Of a stretch of DNA of 64,000 nt, positions 6,584 to 30,565 are shown piece by piece. Under the pieces are notes generated by a model. It searched no databases, had not been told where the DNA came from, and saw only the letters and a program-made list of their open reading frames with translations. The DNA comes from a virus, in the IMG/VR virus record IMGVR_UViG_3300025728_000001, positions 21,817-85,816 of that record; one strand, 5' to 3'. Position numbers and translations under genes: made by a program. Position 1 is the stretch's first letter. Every line of letters begins with the position of its first letter.

Positions 6584-7205
6584 CGTCGAGTTTCTATTGC
6601 AAGACTCCCGCGGCAACACCGGTGACCGTCTGATGTTTTGGGCAGCTGGCGGCGGGTACACGACGAACCTGGACGCGGCGCAGCGCTATACCAAGGAAGA
6701 GGCGGCCAGTCAGAACGAAAGCCGGGAGTCTGACCTGCCTTGGCCGCTGGCGTACCTGGTCGAGCGCATGGAGCTGGCGATTGATTGCCAGTACTTGAAG
6801 CCAGAAGCCGTGGATGCCGGCATGCAGACCGCCGAGCGTGGCTACCTGTACGCGGGCGGTACCTGGAATGGGAACGACCTGTGCTGGCTAACCGATGACG
6901 GCAATATCACCAGCGATTTCAGGAGGGCGCACGCCTTCCCGATGAACATCGCCAAGAGCATGGCCGCTCCGAAGCACCACAACGTGCATTTGGCACCGGC
7001 CGACCTTGTTGAGTCACTGGCGCGCAAGGTGGTGGCCGCCGGCAACGTAAAGCACAAGGAAGCACTGAGAGGAACGGGGATTATCCTGACCAAGCCCCCG
7101 AAGCTCAGGGTATTCCGCGACCGCTGCGGCAACTGCGGGGTGTTTATCTCCGACGCCCAGCGCTTCCAGGACTGCCCCAAGTGCGGCGGTAGCAACGCGC
7201 CCTGA
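6576..7205 (+). CDS. Hypothetical protein with internal repeat and C-terminal zinc ribbon
   Basis: Repeats GDRLMFW/GNDLCWL; CGNCG...CPKCG. Confidence 0.6.
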   Translation: MSDVEFLLQDSRGNTGDRLMFWAAGGGYTTNLDAAQRYTKEEAASQNESRESDLPWPLAYLVERMELAIDCQYLKPEAVDAGMQTAERGYLYAGGTWNGNDLCWLTDDGNITSDFRRAHAFPMNIAKSMAAPKHHNVHLAPADLVESLARKVVAAGNVKHKEALRGTGIILTKPPKLRVFRDRCGNCGVFISDAQRFQDCPKCGGSNAP

Positions 7206-7296
7206 TACAGCCACGTAAAAGCGCTATAACATCTTAACGGCAAAGCGCCATAACGCTTTGCCGTTTTTGGTTGAGTCGAAGAAAGGGCGGTGCGTC

Positions 7297-8037
7297 ATGC
7301 TTGAGGTAATAGGGACAATTCGAATGAAGCGCTTCGCGGCCAACACGGCGGGCCGGGATTTTGCTGTGGGCGATATCCACGGCCATTTCACCCGGCTGCA
7401 AAAGGCACTGGACGCGGTGGGGTTTGATCCGGAGCGCGACCGGCTATTCAGTGCGGGCGATCTGGTGGACCGTGGCCCGGAGTGTCGCGACGTTCTGGAG
7501 TGGCTGGCCAAGTCCTGGTTTCACCCGGTGCGCGGCAACCATGACGACTACGTGTGTCGCTTCGATACGTGCGATGTCGACAACTGGATCTATAACGGCG
7601 GCTCGTGGTTCGCGGGGCTGTCGCTGTTCGAACAGAAAGAGTTCGCCGTCCAGTTTGCCGAAATCCCTATCGCCATTGAGGTCGAGACAGCCGGCGGCCT
7701 GGTGGGGGTGGTTCACGCTGATTGTCCATTCCCGTCGTGGGATCGATTGCGCGATGAGCTGGAATCGCCGGAGAGCAAGAAGCGCCTGCGCCTGGTGCAC
7801 AACACCTGTATGTGGTCACGCAAGCGCGTAGAGGAAGGCGACACGACACCTGTGGAAGGCGTGCGGGCGCTGGTGGTCGGTCACAGCCCGCTACGGTCGC
7901 CGTTGGTGCTGGGTAACGTCCATCACATCGACACGGGCGGCTGGCGCAGTGACTGGGGGCATTTCACCCTGCTCGACTTGTCCACGCTGGCCACGTTCCC
8001 CGCGGCACTCCCAACGCTGCTGCCTGACTGGGAATAA
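7297..8037 (+). CDS. Ser/Thr protein phosphatase (lambda NinI/PphA-like metallophosphoesterase)
   Basis: GDIHG, GDLVDRG, RGNHD, GHSP, IDTG motifs. Confidence 0.92.
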   Translation: MLEVIGTIRMKRFAANTAGRDFAVGDIHGHFTRLQKALDAVGFDPERDRLFSAGDLVDRGPECRDVLEWLAKSWFHPVRGNHDDYVCRFDTCDVDNWIYNGGSWFAGLSLFEQKEFAVQFAEIPIAIEVETAGGLVGVVHADCPFPSWDRLRDELESPESKKRLRLVHNTCMWSRKRVEEGDTTPVEGVRALVVGHSPLRSPLVLGNVHHIDTGGWRSDWGHFTLLDLSTLATFPAALPTLLPDWE

Positions 8038-21211: not shown

Positions 21212-21742
21212 ATGACTAGATGGATAAGCGACGATCACTTGAAGAGCCTCCCGGCCGCCATGACGCGGCGTGCGCTGGGTGGTGTTGCCTCGACACCTGC
21301 GGCCAGGAAGCCGGCGAGCCGGGCCACGGCCAAGACTGTGCAGATTCCTGAGCCGGTGGTGGCTACCGTTCCCGCTCCCACGGCAAAGCAGCGTATGCAG
21401 GCCAAGGGGCGCTTGCCGAAAGGGGTGATGAACGCCACCGAAACCCGGTACGCGGCGCACCTGGACGAGTTGAAGCTGGTCGGGGAGGTTGTGTGGTGGC
21501 GTTTCGAGCCGGTGAAGCTGTTACTGGCGCCGCTCACTACCCTGACGCCTGATTTCATGGTGCAGCTCGCTGACGGCGCGCTAGAAATGCACGACGTGAA
21601 GGGGGCGAAGGCCATCTACGAGGATGACGCCAAGGTCAAGATGAAGGTGGCCGCCAAGGAATACCCCTTTGTGTTCCGTGTGGTGTTCCCCAAGGCCAAG
21701 AAGGACGGCGGCGGGTGGTTGATTGAGCAGGTTGGTGAATGA
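21212..21742 (+). CDS. DUF1064-like PD-(D/E)XK nuclease
   Basis: TETRYA...WRFEP...TPDF...HDVKG. Confidence 0.75.
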   Translation: MTRWISDDHLKSLPAAMTRRALGGVASTPAARKPASRATAKTVQIPEPVVATVPAPTAKQRMQAKGRLPKGVMNATETRYAAHLDELKLVGEVVWWRFEPVKLLLAPLTTLTPDFMVQLADGALEMHDVKGAKAIYEDDAKVKMKVAAKEYPFVFRVVFPKAKKDGGGWLIEQVGE

Positions 21743-22017
21743 GCGGGCCACAGCCTCCCGAGGTGCTGGCCGCCCACGAACGATACGTTAGCCATATCAT
21801 GTTTTGCGTTGTTTGTTTTGCCCCAAAAAAGCGCCATTGTCCTACAGGATTGGCATTGCGGGTGGAGTACGACGCCCGTTTTTTAATGACCATTTCCGAC
21901 CTTCGCTGGCGCCGAATCCTGTTGCAGCGCGAGGTCGAGCAAAACCCGGCAAATGCTGACGGGCTCAAGGACCGCGTTATAGAGCTGTACAACGAAGAAC
22001 AGGGCGAGGCGCAATAG
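21739..22017 (+). CDS. Hypothetical Cys/His protein
   Basis: HIMFCVVC...C. Confidence 0.5.
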   Translation: MSGPQPPEVLAAHERYVSHIMFCVVCFAPKKRHCPTGLALRVEYDARFLMTISDLRWRRILLQREVEQNPANADGLKDRVIELYNEEQGEAQ

Positions 22018-22129
22018 GTTGTCAGTTTTCCCGCGTCAATAGCTAAGCTCTTGCGCCTTTTTGGCTTGCTAAATGTATAGGGATACTTTCTAATCGCCGA
22101 CGTTGAGACGTGCCGGGGAGGGTGCCTAG

Positions 22130-22888
22130 ATGGATGGGAACAAAACAATCGCAGCGGCTACTACAGAGCAGGAAGGCGCCGCGCCTGGCGATACCCAGCC
22201 GTCGGTGCTCTCGCTGTTTTGTGAGTCGGAGGATTTGGGGGTTGGTGCTGGCAAGAGCGAGCGTCGGCGGGCCGAAGAGGCCAAGCTGATGGCCGTTATG
22301 GGTGCCAAGCTGCGCCGGGCGCGCAAGGCTGCCGGACTGAGCGCGAATGACGCGGGGCTGGCACTGGCACAAGAAGGGATGACCATGATCAGCCTGTACG
22401 AGAATGGCCATCGTCTGCCCAGCCTTACTAACATTCGTTTAATGGCACAATTGTACGGCGTGACCACCGATTACCTGTTGGACATGCACGACGACGTTGT
22501 GGCCCGGCCAGAAGACGGCAATCAGGCTGTTCTAAAGGGAATTATCAGTACCTCCCTAATGGGCCAGTTTGGCCAGTTCGTAGATGTCATGTCCCGCCGC
22601 AACTCCGTAATGATCGAGGCCCTGAGCTTGGATCGCGCCCTGTTGTCCAGCCTGGCCGTCGTCGCCACTGATCTGGTCAGCGCTTTAAACGTCGTCAAAA
22701 CCCACGCCCCCGAGTTCGAAGAGATTCGCGGAGGTGCAAAGCTCGTCCGTTTGGTCGGTGAGCTGCATGTGAGTATGTCCGAACAGATACGCCGCCGAGC
22801 GCGCGAGGAAGCCATGGCCGATTACGAGCCCTTCTATCCCGCGCCGGACCAGATTGCAGAGAAGGTGCAGCAGTTCTTTTTGTTTTAG
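22130..22888 (+). CDS. XRE-family HTH transcriptional regulator
   Basis: LRRARKAAGLS...ISLYENG...YGVTTDYLL. Confidence 0.85.
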   Translation: MDGNKTIAAATTEQEGAAPGDTQPSVLSLFCESEDLGVGAGKSERRRAEEAKLMAVMGAKLRRARKAAGLSANDAGLALAQEGMTMISLYENGHRLPSLTNIRLMAQLYGVTTDYLLDMHDDVVARPEDGNQAVLKGIISTSLMGQFGQFVDVMSRRNSVMIEALSLDRALLSSLAVVATDLVSALNVVKTHAPEFEEIRGGAKLVRLVGELHVSMSEQIRRRAREEAMADYEPFYPAPDQIAEKVQQFFLF

Positions 22889-22894
22889 AAGGTG

Positions 22895-23435
22895 GATACA
22901 CGGGCTGGAGAGGTGGACGCGTATAGCCCTGCGTGGCGTCCACTGGCTTGACCAGCTGGTTAACGGGGGCAGTGGTACCCCCGCAAGCTTGAACTCGATC
23001 AGGCTTGCGGGTTTCTAAAGGAGTACGCATACCGGAGCGCTTTGTGAAGAGCACTGCGGTATGCAGTAGGCCGAAAGGTGAGCAAGCATGGCCGGGGCTT
23101 CCTACCGGTTGTAGAGGCGCCAGTAACGCGGGTTGACCATGCGCCTAAGCGCGTTACCTGCTGCATTTCGAATTTGCGCTCTGCGCGGATAGCTTGGCCT
23201 CCTTAAGGGGCATGTGATGCGGTCGCTCGTCGTTGGTGGTCAGGTGTGCGGTTTGCACTCGGCATATAGCGTCCTTAGACAGTGCGCTGAAACACCGCGG
23301 CATGGATAACCGACAGGGAGAAAGGTATTACCACCTTTGCGGCGCCGATCAGTAGCGTTCCCGTTGGCTGATAGTGGTGGGGGTCTACCAGGACCAACGC
23401 CCAAAAGAATGGCCCGCTCTGCGGGCTATTTTTTT
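22895..23435 (+). ncRNA. Candidate large structured ncRNA (~540 nt, multiple stems, two pseudoknots)
   Basis: More than 10 stems with G-U pairs, a GNRA loop, a long-range helix and a terminal intrinsic terminator; no credible ORF. Confidence 0.6.
23410..23435 (+). terminator. Rho-independent terminator
   Basis: GGCCCGC-TCT-GCGGGCT followed by ATTTTTTT. Confidence 0.75.
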
Positions 23436-23506
23436 AAGGTGAAGCGCAAGAAGTTGGCCGCGTTACCACGGCTGACAGCGAACATATTACGCATTAGGGA
23501 TAACAG

Positions 23507-24580
23507 ATGCCGCGCAAGCCAGAGAGTGATAAACCTGCGATGTCGAGGGATGATTTATCCCCGTCCAAGGCTCCGGCGCGTGATCGAAAACCTGCAAAAC
23601 CGCGCGCGGCTAATGCCAACACGGTGCAAAGCAGCAAAAAGCCGGCCACCACGGAAACTAAAAAGCCCGTGAAAGCTGCTGCTAAACCTGCCGCTAAACG
23701 CAAGCCTCGCAGTGCGGCCACGATTGGAAGGACTGCGATCAAGAACCCGGTAAAGCTCCCCCCTAAGGCCCAGCAAGCCATTGATATCTCTGCGTTTCAA
23801 GGGCTCGACGCCCGACAGGCGAAGTTCGTGGATCTGTGGCTGGTCACCTACAACGGGGCTCAGTCCTACCGGGACGCGGGTTACAAGTGCAAGAACGACA
23901 ACGTTGCGCGGGTGGGTGCCCACAAACTGCTAACTAAGGTTAAAAACCACCCGTATACGCTCGCTCGACAGGTTGAACTGTTCTCACGCACCGCCGATGT
24001 GCAAAACCAGATCGTCGCCACCTTCCACGCCGCCTCCTTTGCCGATCCGCGGGAACTGGTCGAGTACGTGCGCCGGTGCTGCCGCTATTGCTATGGCATC
24101 GATCACAAGTTTCAGCTGCGCCCCAGTGAAATGGAGCGCCGCCGCCAGCAGTACGAGGCGGACAAAACCGCCCTCAAGGCCGAGGGCAAGGAAATTGGCG
24201 AGTTCGACGAGCTGGGTGGTGTGGGCTACGACGGCAAGAAGTCGCCCAACTACGATTGCCCCGAGTGCGACGGCGAAGGCGAAGGCCGCGCACTGTTCAA
24301 AGACAGCTCCACCCTGTCCCCTGCTGCCCTGACGCTGTACGAGGGCGTGAAAGAGGGCAAGGACGGTACCGAAATGAAGGTGGCCAGCCAGAAAGGCTAT
24401 CGCGACTCCCTGGCGAAGCTGTTCAACATGAACGTAGAGCCGGCGGTAACAGTGACGCTGGGTATCAGTGAAGAGAAGTTAGAGGAAATCCTGGCGATAG
24501 CTGAGGCGAACACTCAGAAGAATCGCGAGGCCATGTCAGCCCGCGCCGAAGAGCTGGCCAAGATAGGGATTGTGTCGTGA
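23507..24580 (+). CDS. Terminase small subunit (basic N-terminal tail, Zn-finger insert)
   Basis: LDARQAKFVDLWLVTYNGAQSYRDAGY Terminase_2 HTH; CCRYC...CPEC. Confidence 0.85.
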   Translation: MPRKPESDKPAMSRDDLSPSKAPARDRKPAKPRAANANTVQSSKKPATTETKKPVKAAAKPAAKRKPRSAATIGRTAIKNPVKLPPKAQQAIDISAFQGLDARQAKFVDLWLVTYNGAQSYRDAGYKCKNDNVARVGAHKLLTKVKNHPYTLARQVELFSRTADVQNQIVATFHAASFADPRELVEYVRRCCRYCYGIDHKFQLRPSEMERRRQQYEADKTALKAEGKEIGEFDELGGVGYDGKKSPNYDCPECDGEGEGRALFKDSSTLSPAALTLYEGVKEGKDGTEMKVASQKGYRDSLAKLFNMNVEPAVTVTLGISEEKLEEILAIAEANTQKNREAMSARAEELAKIGIVS

Positions 24581-26176: not shown

Positions 26177-26760
26177 TTTTTCTGAATCGCGCTGATTTTG
26201 AGTATGCCGCCAAGGAAGCCGGGATAACCGACCTTGAGCACGCCGGGGAGCATTACGCCAACCCCCACACGCAAGCGGCCTTCTTGGTCTGGATGAGCGT
26301 GGCATTCCCGCGCACCAGCACCGGGGTCAGTCCGCTGGCGTGGGTGAATCGTCGTAACGGCAAGGCGGTGGGGCTGAGCATGACGCGCCCGAGCGGGCCA
26401 GAGTCGGCCGGCTGGGCCAAGCGCCGCGCCCAAGGCTGGGAGCCGTCTATGCCGATGTTCGCCAACGTGCCAGGGGTGAGCCCCGAGGTGATGGCGGTCG
26501 TGCTTGAGCACCAGCGCCAGCGCCAGGAAGAGGGCTATTCGATACAGAGCGACCTGGCGCAATACCGCGGTGGCGAGCTGGCGCGGTCGGCGGCGTGCTA
26601 CGCGATGCAGGCCGGTGGCATGTATCCCCTACGGTGGGCCAACTTCTGGCCGTTTAACTCGAAAATGAAGTCGTGCCCGCCCACTGAATCGCTGATCAAG
26701 GCGGGCGCACTGATCTTTTCCGAACTGGAGCGCATCAAGGCACAAGAGGCGGCCCGATGA
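26173..26760 (+). CDS. Hypothetical phage protein
   Basis: EHQRQ..EEGY...GELARSAACYA...LIKAGALI common phage domain. Confidence 0.6.
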   Translation: MIFLNRADFEYAAKEAGITDLEHAGEHYANPHTQAAFLVWMSVAFPRTSTGVSPLAWVNRRNGKAVGLSMTRPSGPESAGWAKRRAQGWEPSMPMFANVPGVSPEVMAVVLEHQRQRQEEGYSIQSDLAQYRGGELARSAACYAMQAGGMYPLRWANFWPFNSKMKSCPPTESLIKAGALIFSELERIKAQEAAR

Positions 26761-27446
26761 GTTTGCCACCGCTCTACGAGGATGCCCGGTGGCCCGCGTT
26801 CATCGCTCGTTACGCCAACGACCTCTGCGCGTTTGCCGCTGATGTCCTCGGCATGGAGGTAACGCCAGCGCTCGCCCACGCCTACTGCCTCGCCTCGCTC
26901 CCTGGCTGTCGTGTGTCCATCGCTACCGACATCGATTTGAATGGTGTCGACGCCATTAGCCCGATGGCGCCTATCGCGATCTGGCGCCTGCTGTGTCGCC
27001 CTGAGTCCAGAACCTTAGTGACCATTCCTTTTGGTGGTGGGCGTGCCCGCAAACAGCAATACGTGCGGTTGCTGACGTGGATGGTCGAGGGCGCCCATAG
27101 CTGGTTGCGCGCCTATATCAGTGTTGACGCTACTCAAATCTATCTGCGGCGCGGGTATACGGGCTCGAAAATCCTGTTCCTCTGTGCCGACCAGAGAAGC
27201 CCCGAGAGTCTGGCCGGGTTCTACGGGGGTCACATTTGCTGGCTGATGGAGGCCGCCGAGGACATTCCTGATGCGTGTTTCAGCGTGGCGCTCGCGGCGA
27301 TGACCGATCCGGGCGCCTGCATGCTGCTCACCAACAAACCTTGGCGGGAATCGGGGTTTGCCGCCGACACACGCGGAAAGCTGAGCAAGGACCAGGGCGG
27401 ACAGTGGGACGTCTGCGCCTTGGCTGGCGCGCAAACCACGCAATAA
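26757..27446 (+). CDS. Inactive paralog of the TerL ATPase domain
   Basis: Colinear with TerL N-terminus (RWPAFIARYA, GCRVS, PESLAG, SGF, QGGQW), but Walker A and B are lost and there is no nuclease domain. Confidence 0.8.
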   Translation: MSLPPLYEDARWPAFIARYANDLCAFAADVLGMEVTPALAHAYCLASLPGCRVSIATDIDLNGVDAISPMAPIAIWRLLCRPESRTLVTIPFGGGRARKQQYVRLLTWMVEGAHSWLRAYISVDATQIYLRRGYTGSKILFLCADQRSPESLAGFYGGHICWLMEAAEDIPDACFSVALAAMTDPGACMLLTNKPWRESGFAADTRGKLSKDQGGQWDVCALAGAQTTQ

Positions 27447-27512: not shown

Positions 27513-29807
27513 ATGGCCAGGGCGAAGAAAGAAAAACAGTTGGTGCTCGATGCCGATCCGCGCTGGCCTGCGTTTGTTGCCCGGTATGCCTTCGAACAGT
27601 ACAAGTTCGCCGTCGAAGTGTGCGGCATGGGCATTGTGGGCAAGCCCGTAACGCACCAGCAGAAAGAACTGTTCGATGAGGCCTCGCCCTATGGCTGCCG
27701 GGTGTCGGTGGCGTCTGGCCACGGCTGCTTTGCGCTGGGCACTAAACTCATGCTCGCCAGCGGTGAGCCGATTGCCGTAGAGGACGTGAAGTCTGGCCAG
27801 CGCCTCATGGGCGCCGACGGCTCGCACGCCACCACGGTCCTGGAGCTTAAGCGTGGGCGCCAGGCCATGTACCGGTTCACCTATACCGACGGCACCAGCC
27901 ACACATTCAACGAAGCACACATTCTTTGCCTGGTGGCCATCGCGCCCGATGGTGACGTGGGCGTGGGCGCCGAGATTGAAACGTCCGTAGAGCAGTGGTT
28001 GACCTGGGGGGCGGACAAGCAGGCCCGGTATGCGACCTATCGAAGCGATGCCAAGTCGTTCCGGCGCCCACTGCGCAACCTGTCGGTGTCTCCATACGTC
28101 ATGGGCCAGCGGCTGGCGCTTTCTGGTGAGCTGATCCCCGCCGATTACCTGTACAGCGGCCAGGCGCAACGCCAAGAGCTGCTGGATGGCATGGTGGGGC
28201 GTGCTGGCGCCCAATTCATTAGTGGGAGCGAGGCTGTCACCCGTCAAGTGAGCTGGCTGGCGCGTTCGGTTGGGTACCACTCCAGTGTGGTGCGCCTTGA
28301 GTCCGGCAACTGGCTGGCCAAGATCGATCGGTTGCCTGGCGCGCTGCACTTCGCGATTGCTTCCTGTGAGGCGCTGGGGGAGGGCGACTACTACGGCTTC
28401 ACCCTGGACGGCGACAACCGGCTGCTTGGGCATGACTTCACCGTTCTGCACAACACCGGCAAGACTAGGAGTTTTGGCGTTATAGCGCTTTGGCACCTGC
28501 TCTGCTATCGCAACTCAAACACCTACATCACCGCGCCAAAGCTCAAGACGGTACGGGAGGGTGTCTGGAAGGAAATCACCACACTCAAGGCGCAGATCGA
28601 GAAAGGCCCGCACGCCTGGATTGCGCAATACATCACCATCCAGGCCGAAAAGGTCTACATCAACACCAAGTCGGCTATCTGGTACGTCACGACCCGTACA
28701 GCGCCCCGCGGCTCGCCTGAGAACCTGGCCGGTACCCACGGTGATTACCTCTTATGGATGGCGGATGAGGCGTCAGGCATCCCGGACGAAAACTTTGGTG
28801 TGATCGGTGGCGCCCTCACCGATCCGCGTAACCGTTTCATCATGGCCAGCCAGCCTACCCGTAGCAGCGGGTTCTTTCGTGACTCGCACCACAGTAAGAG
28901 CAAGCGCCAGGGCGGGGCGTGGACAAGCCTCACATTCAGCTCCGAAGAGTCGACGCTGGTTGGTATCGAGTTCATCAAGGAAAAGCTCATCCAGTACGGT
29001 GGGCGCGATGAAATGGAATACCAGATCAAGGTCCGGGGCATGTTCCCGACCAACTCAAGCAAGTACCTGCTCAGCCAGGCAGCCCTTGAGCGCGTCATTG
29101 AAGGCCCGAACGTCATTCTGCCGGGCGAAGCCTATGGTCACCTGATCATCGTCGACGTGGCGGCGGGCGTAGGGCGAGACAAGACCGTGGCCACCCATAT
29201 GAAGGTGATCGGCAACGGCGACCGCATGAGCGCAGACCGGCGCCGGATTGAGGTAGTGGCGGTACCGGTCTACACCAACACCGAAGACTGGACACCGGTG
29301 GCGGTGAAGGTGCTGGACTACGCGGCGCAGTTCTCCAACGTAACGATCATCGTCGACACCAACGGCATGGGTAACCAGTTCCTCAAGCGGCTGATAGAGC
29401 TGTCGGGCGGCGGTATCCATGCCAAGGGCTGTCGCTGGGGTGAATTGCCGTTCAGCAACGAATACCGCAAGCGATTCCTCAATCAGCGGGCGCAAAGCAC
29501 CGTGCACCTGGTTGAGGCGATCAAGGACGGCGTGGTACGTCTGTCGAGCCAGTACAAAAAGGATCTGATCGACCAGGGCAGCCGTATTCCTTACTTCCTG
29601 GACGAGCTGGGGCGATATCACATCGCCCGCAAGCAGGACATGGCCGCCGAGGGTCTGCCATCCCCCGACCTTTTGGACACGCTCGCCATGGCGTTTCTGG
29701 AATCTGCGGACTACGTGCCAGCGCAAGGCGAGGCCGTCAGCCTCAGCACAGACAGGCGCCAGGCCGCACTTGATGCGGCTCGCGAGGCGCTGGCGGGCAT
29801 CACGTAA
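27513..29807 (+). CDS. Terminase large subunit (P1 PacB-like) with intein
   Basis: Spliced Walker A SGHG/TGKT, Walker B LLWMADEASG, RNase H nuclease IIVDVAAG...SPDLLD. Confidence 0.93.
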   Translation: MARAKKEKQLVLDADPRWPAFVARYAFEQYKFAVEVCGMGIVGKPVTHQQKELFDEASPYGCRVSVASGHGCFALGTKLMLASGEPIAVEDVKSGQRLMGADGSHATTVLELKRGRQAMYRFTYTDGTSHTFNEAHILCLVAIAPDGDVGVGAEIETSVEQWLTWGADKQARYATYRSDAKSFRRPLRNLSVSPYVMGQRLALSGELIPADYLYSGQAQRQELLDGMVGRAGAQFISGSEAVTRQVSWLARSVGYHSSVVRLESGNWLAKIDRLPGALHFAIASCEALGEGDYYGFTLDGDNRLLGHDFTVLHNTGKTRSFGVIALWHLLCYRNSNTYITAPKLKTVREGVWKEITTLKAQIEKGPHAWIAQYITIQAEKVYINTKSAIWYVTTRTAPRGSPENLAGTHGDYLLWMADEASGIPDENFGVIGGALTDPRNRFIMASQPTRSSGFFRDSHHSKSKRQGGAWTSLTFSSEESTLVGIEFIKEKLIQYGGRDEMEYQIKVRGMFPTNSSKYLLSQAALERVIEGPNVILPGEAYGHLIIVDVAAGVGRDKTVATHMKVIGNGDRMSADRRRIEVVAVPVYTNTEDWTPVAVKVLDYAAQFSNVTIIVDTNGMGNQFLKRLIELSGGGIHAKGCRWGELPFSNEYRKRFLNQRAQSTVHLVEAIKDGVVRLSSQYKKDLIDQGSRIPYFLDELGRYHIARKQDMAAEGLPSPDLLDTLAMAFLESADYVPAQGEAVSLSTDRRQAALDAAREALAGIT
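27726..28454 (+). mobile_element. Intein (243 aa) in TerL Walker A
   Basis: Begins CFALGT, ends FTVLHN followed by Thr; block B HIL; remnant LLDGM...ARSVG endonuclease segment. Confidence 0.92.
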
Positions 29808-29878
29808 CAAACAATGTTTTGATAATGCGTAATCCGCTGATATGCTGGCGCCCGCCCCACATATTCGGAACAAAACTT

Positions 29879-30565
29879 ATGAGTGATTTTGTGTGCCGTA
29901 AGAGCATGACGCCCTGCAAGACACCGGGTATGTGCTCGCCGCACGGCGGATGCCCCAGCACTGAGCAAGTCAGCAGCGCATGGCTGGCGCAGCTGCGCAG
30001 TGAGTACCTGGTGTTTGGTCAGCAAGCCACGGCTTTGAAGGCCGAGAACGTCCGTCTGCGCGAACAGGTTGCCGCACTGCAATCCAGTCCGCTGGATGCG
30101 CGGCTTGCTGGCTTCTGGCGCTCCCCGAAGGAAATGCCGCCAGAGGACGCCCAAGTGGTGGTGCTGCGCGATGCCGGCAACGTGGGGAATGGTCAGCACC
30201 CTGGCCACCGCTGTGGGCGCTGGCTTGAGCTGACCACGGCCAGTCGCCTTATGTTCGCCTGCGATGCGCTTTCAACCGGAAACGTTATCGGCTGGGTTGG
30301 CGCTGATGAGTTCCTAGGGCTTGAGGGTTTGAGCGCCAACGCCTGCCGCTATCTGTGGTTGCGCGACAAGGACGAAACGACGGCGGCCCATTTCCTTGGT
30401 TATTCGGACGGCAGTGTTGGCGATTCGATCCTTGATAAGGCAATGAGCAGGGAGAGCGGCGAAGAGTTTCGATGCAAGACCTGCTATTGCGAATGGATAG
30501 GCACCAAAGCCCATCCAGATACCGCTTGTGAAGCCCCAGACGTTAGAGCGGGGCGTCGGCCATGA
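29879..30565 (+). CDS. Hypothetical mosaic protein
   Basis: Cys-rich N-terminus, coiled coil, RYLWLRD motif. Confidence 0.55.
   Translation: MSDFVCRKSMTPCKTPGMCSPHGGCPSTEQVSSAWLAQLRSEYLVFGQQATALKAENVRLREQVAALQSSPLDARLAGFWRSPKEMPPEDAQVVVLRDAGNVGNGQHPGHRCGRWLELTTASRLMFACDALSTGNVIGWVGADEFLGLEGLSANACRYLWLRDKDETTAAHFLGYSDGSVGDSILDKAMSRESGEEFRCKTCYCEWIGTKAHPDTACEAPDVRAGRRP

Follow-up and report, generated by a model that had tools for sequence, protein, structure and literature searches.

The window analysed here comprises 64,000 nucleotides of the IMG/VR virus record IMGVR_UViG_3300025728_000001 (positions 21,817 to 85,816). Between the gene of a helix-turn-helix (HTH) regulator and the small terminase gene (terS), it carries a structured non-coding RNA of ~530 nt on the + strand (~22904-23435) that ends at an intrinsic terminator. 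Judged by its sequence, this RNA belongs to an uncatalogued, modular family of structured RNAs of Pseudomonas P1-like phage-plasmids, of which one domain is common to the DicF precursor of Escherichia coli and the ban leader of phage P1. Comparison of the relatives has shown some 15 helices that are conserved in sequence and position and contain many compensatory changes, and the family is almost certainly real. A preliminary description had called a new or very diverged large structured non-coding RNA that it could assign to neither GOLLD nor ROOL, and this core call is upheld by the empty Rfam search, the covariation, and the lack of a conserved open reading frame (ORF). Its claim of one large new RNA holds in that the RNA is new, large, and structured, but three modules come and go among the relatives, so that it is not indivisible. 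Moreover, the central module (D2) is not new sequence space, as it corresponds to the unannotated fold that precedes DicF and forms part of the P1 ban leader.

Evidence for a non-coding RNA on the + strand

The RNA lies in a gap of 618 nt (22889-23506) that separates the end of the HTH gene (252 aa, stop codon included) from the start codon (ATG) of terS. The + strand of this gap folds with -243.9 kcal/mol (z = -3.83 against dinucleotide shuffles). A search of the whole 64-kb window with Rfam 15, one of the checks proposed in the preliminary description, delivered nothing at gathering scores; the families considered include GOLLD, ROOL, HEARO, raiA, OLE, RNase P, transfer-messenger RNA (tmRNA), group I and II introns, riboswitches, and DicF. 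At E values up to 10, the region 22700-23600 returned terminator-like noise far below threshold. ARAGORN found no tRNA or tmRNA gene in the window.

Covariation among homologs, another proposed check, is strong across 19 syntenic relatives and in all three domains (D1, D2, and D3). Three covariance models were constructed (R1 for D2, R2 for helices P7-P14 of D3, and R3 for D1), and controls were obtained by sliding the helix partners and from 500 shuffles. In D3, 89.0% of the cells (19 sequences) hold pairs, versus 29-51% after sliding; 30 pairs have changed on both sides, compared with 18.4 +/- 2.0 in shuffled and 8-16 in slid controls, and none of the 500 shuffles scored as high. The covariation score of this domain is 0.429 versus 0.188 for the control. 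Standard pairs fill 93.6% of the D2 cells (12 sequences) versus 29-49% after sliding, and 16 D2 pairs have changed on both sides versus 7.2 +/- 1.5 in the shuffles, again reached by 0 of 500. Fitting the alignments to the models favours the structure, although the slid and shuffled controls and the count of double changes argue against this as the whole effect. The number of independent lineages is modest, and because several of the 19 sequences are closely related, the paired-cell counts overstate the number of evolutionary events. A naive column-pair covariation scan had given an excess of false helices in G/U-rich sequence and was replaced by the model-based alignments.

That the gap conceals one or more small protein genes is scarcely credible. 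The equivalent gap of Xanthomonas phage Rb1 (467 nt) does have unannotated open frames, but here every + frame is interrupted, with 6-10 stops per frame in the window and several per frame in the relatives of long form. Neither strand has a frame that stays open throughout the relatives, and most gap runs in the alignment are not multiples of three. In addition, the substitution pattern is compensatory and not codon-like. A conserved ORF had been named as one of the findings that would refute the RNA call, which is sustained in this respect.

The + strand had been chosen based on G-U pairs, and this choice stands, as invariant U-G pairs and one-sided changes from G-C to G-U fit the + strand only, and the T-run of the terminator fits it too. 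An element that works at the DNA level, such as a pac or cos site, an origin, or a protein-binding array, would be in keeping with the adjoining terminase genes and with the - strand of the gap, which also folds better than dinucleotide shuffles (z = -3.16). It is nevertheless very improbable: pairing of the RNA type is preserved through the substitutions, with U-G pairs among them whose opposite strand would have A-C, the unit is closed by a terminator, and the pac site of P1 is located inside pacA and not 5' of it. Repeats or iterons were not noticed in the alignments, on which no repeat search was run.

Relatives and size classes

Loci were collected from IMG/VR, metagenomes, and PLSDB by searching with TerS, the HTH protein, a TerS alignment, and DNA motifs. 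Profile searches confirmed that 19 additional, distinct sequences carry a homologous non-coding stretch in the same place. These share the gene order resolvase, 92-aa ORF, HTH, RNA, and terS, and their nucleotide identity ranges from 93% down to detection by profile only. They fall into four size classes. Class A (the window, L002-L006, and the partial L029) has ~530-560 nt, whereas the first ~130 nt are missing from class B (L007, L020, L031, and L083; ~400-430 nt). Class B' (L063-L065 and L067; ~400 nt) has unrelated sequence in place of the central hairpin module, and class C (L008-L010, L071, and L072; ~250-280 nt) consists of the 3' domain only. All four close with the same type of terminator, after which come a conserved ~60-nt element and terS. 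The classes represent natural deletion variants that show which domain is the core. Model R2 recovers every class A, B, and B' sequence at E < 1e-29 and four of the five class C sequences at ~1e-6.

When the gap was searched with blastn, none of 50,697 phage records matched, and among plasmids only NZ_CP070504 of Pseudomonas atacamensis did. Scanning 185,579 species genomes for exact motifs hit 12 places, which are regarded as chance matches because the profile confirmed none of them. Distant TerS relatives (29-40% identity) had no R1 or R2 match. The gap of phage Rb1, which has the same synteny, was considered as an equivalent and rejected, being coding and lacking an R2 match. Its two unannotated open frames (~1340-1585 and ~1590-1808) are situated in the stretch from the HTH gene to the next gene (PQ569993 1340-1810; L087).

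Domain architecture

The core common to all classes is D3 (23176..23399, + strand, model R2). It starts with the variable hairpin P5 (23176-79 with 23183-86), which was recognized by inspection of the alignment only, and continues with P7 (23197-201 with 23207-11), P8 (23220-23 with 23309-12), P9 (23229-38 with 23293-301), P10 (23243-46 with 23256-59), and P11 (23268-72 with 23284-88), whose loop is CCUUAGACAGU. These are followed by P12 (23321-26 with 23333-38), P14 (23348-53 with 23367-72), and P13 (23382-85 with 23392-95), of which the latter carries the invariant loop UACCAG. P7, P9, P13, and P14 are the strongest helices. Lower scores were obtained for the variable hairpins P10-P12, in part owing to the difficulty of aligning them. 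The long-range helix CGTTGGT/ACCAACG of the preliminary description is paired in 74.5% of cells and loses to P9 (97.7%). The P13 loop may pair with CUUGG at 23193-97 (89.5% paired, no double changes). Another candidate helix, P15 (23339-43 with 23374-78), was weak (79% paired) and was discarded. The long invariant unpaired stretches of D3 suggest a tertiary structure that would bind a partner. No R2 homolog was found in P1, E. coli K-12, Rb1, or L016 (IMGVR_UViG_2030936006_000015).

In front of D3 lies D2 (23027..23165, + strand, model R1). Its hairpin P3 (23031-42 with 23049-60) is followed by the long-range helix P4 (23062-69 with 23158-65), which encloses the GNRA hairpin P4a (23071-78), a conserved GCAAG, P4b (23090-95 with 23105-10), and P4c (23123-30 with 23150-57), the last with a near-invariant 19-nt loop (GGUUGACCAUGCGCCUAAG). 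Several stems that had been proposed from the window alone are borne out by the relatives. The stem GCATACCG/CGGTATGC is P3, where ACCG/CGGT switches to AAAA/TTTT; the CC-GAAA-GG hairpin is P4a, with the loop variants GAAA, GGAA, and GUAA; and GTAACGCG/CGCGTTAC is P4c, in which five of eight pairs are compensated and 99% of cells are paired. The proposed GTAGG/CCTAC helix (78% paired) has to be given up in favour of the competing P4 (98.9%). Likewise, the second of two proposed pseudoknots (AGGCGC at 23115-20 with GCGCCU at 23141-46) is unproven: it is formable in the Pseudomonas clade (90% paired) and shows no covariation, and it is impossible in the homologs of P1 and E. coli, where the loop is kept and the 5' strand reads AAACCA (P1) or AGGACA (the Qin prophage). 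Two local deviations in P3 were observed, namely a C-A mismatch in the inner stem of the window (23038/23053; GCACT, where most relatives have GCGCT) and an insertion of ~34 nt with short AACTCTAAA-like repeats in the P3 loop of L006 (~1110-1150).

The 5' extension D1 (22904..23011, + strand) occurs in class A only and is missing from classes B, B', and C. Its structure was derived with RNAalifold from six class A sequences, and 15 of its 27 pairs show compensatory changes. It comprises the helices P0 (22904-08, GCTGG, with 22952-56, CCAGC), P1 (22912-20 with 22936-44, conserved loop GUAUAGCC), and P2' (22980-92 with 22999-23011). Helix P1 is the previously noticed stem GTGGACGC/GCGTCCAC, now with 9 bp of which five pairs have changed on both sides, and P2' is the heavily compensated stem CCGCAAGCTTGA/TCAGGCTTGCGG. 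The first proposed pseudoknot (AGCCC with GGGCT) is not supported, as its upstream strand reads GTGCT or CTGCT in four of the six relatives, varies without compensation, and overlaps the better-supported P0. R3 gives no credible copy of D1 in phage P1, K-12, or other records.

The intrinsic terminator (23412..23435, + strand) forms the presumed 3' end of the RNA. It consists of a GCCCGC/GCGGGC stem with a UCU loop, followed by U-A-U7. The preliminary description had correctly noticed a terminator here, which reads GCCCGC-TCT-GCGGGC plus T7 in the DNA, and it is kept in every full-length relative with compensated changes such as GCACGC/GCGTGC in L006.

A domain common to the DicF precursor and the P1 ban leader

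R1 was built from a hand-written structure (P3, P4, P4a, P4b, and P4c) with Pseudomonas sequences only and then realigned. In the 4.6-Mb K-12 chromosome (NC_000913.3), it has a single match (1649241-1649370, 42.5 bits, E 4e-7), which is located in the Qin prophage between ydfC and dicF and ends 12 nt before dicF. In P1 (NC_005856), it also has a single match (68713-68845, 30.4 bits, E 7e-6). This match starts ~17 nt past the -10 box of P1ban, a promoter under C1 control, and overlaps with what is annotated there as the 'dicF-like region'. The defining features of the DicF-precursor fold, P4 around a G-rich P4b and a P4c with the loop GGUUGACCAUNCGCYUAAG, are present in D2. The stems differ in a compensatory manner (GUAACGCG/CGCGUUAC here, GUUGUCA/UGACAAC in Qin, and GUUGCCA/UGGCAAC in P1), and the 19-nt loop GGUUGACCAU(G/A)CGC(C/U)UAAG is kept from Pseudomonas to Qin and P1. 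By these sequence comparisons, D2 is shown to be a homolog both of the ban operon leader in P1 and of the fold that lies just 5' of DicF in prophages of the Qin type in E. coli.

The likeness thus consists of a closing helix around a short G-rich hairpin and a hairpin of 8-9 bp with a near-identical 19-nt loop. The RNAs differ in that a 225-nt D3 follows the fold here in place of the 53-nt DicF, and in that the RNA described here adds the P3 and GNRA hairpins and, in its closest relatives, also D1. The Qin-type fold is widespread and unannotated: it was found in 4315 of 5426 complete E. coli genomes (~80%), with up to eight copies per genome, and also in lambdoid, Stx, and P1/P7-type phages. 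The loop motif of D2 occurs on more than 120 IMG/VR contigs. A survey of terminator distances for 107 IMG/VR copies of the motif was abandoned, as a simple finder missed the branched DicF terminator and left the counts unusable.

Northern blots have revealed a DicF species of 190 nt in E. coli, the 5' end of which is generated by RNase III (PMC10448788). Calculated as the dicF start minus 137 nt, this 5' end falls at the start of the R1 match, from which it follows that the D2 fold of E. coli is transcribed and persists in the processed RNA. No study of the fold's own function was found in the literature, and the content of the 5' part of the 190-nt species becomes an experimental question. 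Since the fold is shared with K-12 and P1, the genetics of either could reveal the role of D2.

A reduced D2 (47.5 bits) was also detected at 7250-7360 of L016 in a different gene context. On the - strand of this contig, a non-coding gap of ~650 nt (7040-7676) has a sigma-70-like TTGCAA-N18-AATAAT at its 5' edge; from sequence, the gap may harbour another large RNA that reuses the D2 module. In P1, an unannotated terminator-like hairpin (GCCCATCTTCGGGTGGGC followed by T6; ~68,870-68,900, ~1660-1690 in L089) was observed ~31 nt 3' of the D2-like fold. It sits between Pban and the tRNAs, tciABC, and ban, which are genes thought to be served by Pban.

Origin of the RNA and mode of action

In classes B and C, the first helix is found within ~10 nt of the HTH stop codon. 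As these short classes leave no room for an intergenic promoter, the RNA is best regarded as the 3' tail of the regulator transcript, although a promoter hidden in the 3' part of the HTH gene may be an alternative source. A search of 21500-24000 revealed no sigma-70-like site. We propose that the RNA would be made as the tail of an early HTH regulator transcript that stops at its own terminator, and that the tail is then probably trimmed to a stable species, just as RNase III cuts the 190-nt DicF from the dicBF transcript. D2 would serve as a shared 5' structural or processing module, D3 as the clade-specific working part that binds a partner through its tertiary fold, and D1 as an optional add-on. 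Taken as a whole, including its mechanism, this picture of a modular structured + strand RNA gene, trimmed from a regulator transcript to a stable species, has somewhat better than an even chance of being right; for the narrower question of whether the stable RNA acts in trans rather than as a purely cis-acting signal, the chances are evenly balanced.

The downstream packaging operon would probably start from its own promoter-like element, as at LPpac of P1, where no more than 85 nt lead from lpa via a terminator-like hairpin and LPpac (the late promoter) to pacA. Compared with this order, the RNA constitutes an insertion between the regulator gene and the terminator-promoter pair. The element in question (23441..23500, + strand, ~60 nt) reads GCGCAAGAAGTTGGCC...CCACGG..GATAGCGAA, is conserved in classes A, B, B', and C, and retains the pattern GCGCA-GAAGTTGGCC...CCACG..GATAGC from class A to class C. 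From its LPpac-like position, it presumably serves the packaging operon as promoter or leader. Its GAAGTT-N16/17-CTGA presumably resembles a promoter of the extracytoplasmic function (ECF) sigma type more than a sigma-70 promoter. Two motif searches were discarded: a late-promoter motif (GCAAA-N30-GACACT) occurred three times versus 2.5 expected and never at the RNA locus, and a 16-mer of the element had eight near-matches versus 1.3 expected, all others of which are in coding sequence and look like codon bias.

The preliminary description had further supposed that the RNA is expressed late and is linked to packaging or anti-defence. This finds no support, as the RNA is located 5' of the terminator and directly behind a regulator gene of the early type. 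The D2 relatives lie in early operons that are repressor-controlled (Pban/Oban in P1, and dicBp with DicA in Qin), which argues for expression at derepression rather than late.

These operons also provide the basis for a different explanation. In all contexts, a terminator follows the fold; in Qin, the fold is succeeded by the DicF terminator and then by dicB. D2 is thus found in three unrelated operons, and each time an intrinsic terminator and then genes of the same orientation come 3' of it. In E. coli, two transcripts have been observed, of which one is terminated (1,146 nt) and the other reads through (1,608 nt; PMC10448788). The putL and putR sites of phage HK022 are likewise phage RNA folds in early operons 5' of terminators, where they act as protein-independent processive antiterminators, and P4b and P4c together, being two stem-loops of ~70 nt, come near to put in size and layout (PMC9378689). 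Nascent D2 and/or D3 could accordingly bind RNA polymerase in cis, whereby transcripts from the early promoter would pass 23412-23435 and later terminators into the packaging genes, while other transcripts stop. We consider such a cis-acting antiterminator the main rival, though an unlikely one. With 250-550 nt, the RNA is far above what put needs (4-8 times larger), its conserved core is D3 and not D2, classes B' and C are devoid of the P4c hairpin, and the terminator has a well-conserved promoter-like element behind it, comparable to LPpac in P1. Furthermore, searching the entire HK022 genome with R1 at E values up to 10 returned no match, which is a weak test as R1 models all of D2. The RNA has no detectable R1 homology to put, and its action on polymerase is putative.

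Several observations nonetheless weigh against the proposal of a trimmed regulator tail with its own function. First, D2 precedes a terminator and co-oriented genes in all three contexts, and a cis-acting antiterminator would look alike. Second, classes B' and C have lost the P4c hairpin or all of D2 and yet keep the position and the terminator, which means that D2 is not essential for the action of D3. Third, the post-terminator element has no match to the sigma-70 consensus, so that its promoter nature is putative. Fourth, the transcript ends, promoter, and processing sites of the RNA are putative. Contigs from RNA-labelled soil runs do cover it, but they cover its neighbours too and may stem from DNA, thus showing neither expression nor ends. 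In run X7, a single 6.5-kb contig spans the whole RNA stretch, and in run X21 a contig bridges the terminator. In run X10, a 328-nt contig (depth 26) ends at 23404, just before the terminator, beside flanks of depth 12.6 and 4.1. DNA carry-over may account for the contigs of all three runs.

Comparison with known RNAs

GOLLD and ROOL are, like the RNA described here, large multi-helix non-coding RNAs carried by temperate phages, although their hosts are Lactobacillales and rumen or lake bacteria (PMC12286853) and not Pseudomonas. The RNA has no sequence or structure match to either at any threshold, is smaller than GOLLD, and is modular. An ornate RNA that works through its three-dimensional form, be it a multimer of the ROOL/GOLLD kind, a ribozyme, a motor RNA like the pRNA of phi29, or a defence decoy, is quite improbable. 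Its size, its many helices, the GNRA loop, and the invariant unpaired stretches (GGUUGACCAUGCGCCUAAG, CCUUAGACAG, GGAUAACCG, AGUGGUGGGGG, and UACCAG) speak for it; CCUAAG presumably recalls a tetraloop receptor. The RNA also always adjoins terS, which is not specific evidence as the synteny of the whole region is conserved. On the other hand, homology to ROOL, GOLLD, pRNA, or any Rfam ribozyme family is absent, and domains that are freely gained and lost would be unusual for a single catalytic or cage-forming fold.

3'-untranslated region (3'-UTR)-derived small RNAs (sRNAs), for example CpxQ and SroC, have 50-150 nt, depend on Hfq, and act through short seed pairing. The RNA described here resembles them in its start directly after a stop codon and in its use of the terminator of the gene 5' of it, and in the short classes no promoter of its own is visible. 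It differs in its length of 250-550 nt and its complex fold, and its processing is proposed by analogy.

A bolder notion, and a rather doubtful one, is that D3 with or without D2 constitutes a new class of RNA that acts directly on a large machine, either as a polymerase-binding antiterminator unrelated to put or as a self-folding scaffold or ribozyme. In the latter version, the phage-plasmid would make it when turning from plasmid maintenance to lytic growth. If either were true, the widespread D2 fold itself would be an unrecognised functional RNA motif.

Large structured RNAs of bacteria and phages that show strong covariation and have no assigned function are few, and the earlier cases of GOLLD, ROOL, OLE, and raiA have each revealed an unexpected RNA architecture. 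At least one cultured carrier is available, namely P. atacamensis SM1 with its plasmid NZ_CP070504.

Genome setting and neighbouring features

The window constitutes the right-hand part of an 85.8-kb IMG/VR record with direct terminal repeats. Its gene set is P1-like and includes a PacB-type large terminase, DarB- and Hdf-like antirestriction proteins, a portal, and a baseplate; the best matches of the large terminase are from Acinetobacter phage ABMM1, Xanthomonas phage Rb1, and P1 (pacB). Homologs of the small terminase come from P. atacamensis, P. putida, P. orientalis, and a P. fluorescens plasmid (80,993 bp), and the contigs measure 77-92 kb. Since these genes are P1-like, the TerS homologs are from Pseudomonas, and the relative NZ_CP070504 is a complete, non-mobilizable 81-kb plasmid of P. 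atacamensis SM1, the host element of the RNA is, on sequence grounds, a P1-like phage-plasmid of Pseudomonas.

The regulator gene 5' of the RNA (22130..22888, + strand, 252 aa) encodes an XRE-type HTH protein (Pfam HTH_3/HTH_31; PHROG transcription regulators), which shares 27% identity (E 4e-7) with the HTH protein at the equivalent position in Rb1. It shows no similarity to Lpa of P1, despite occupying the lpa position. The 3' neighbour in all relatives is terS (23507..24580, + strand), encoding a PacA-like small terminase of 357 aa (phrog_51, Pfam Terminase_2).

The gap that holds the RNA had been described as the largest in the genome. In a crude ORF map it is the second largest, being exceeded by a 676-nt gap at 29808-30483 directly 3' of the large terminase gene, in which the same map shows no ORF of at least 60 aa and Rfam no match. 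The large terminase itself (27513-29807, 764 aa) begins to match terminases only around residue 313, and a 229-aa ORF just 5' of it (26757-27446) matches phrog_5902, as do residues 313-619 of the large terminase.

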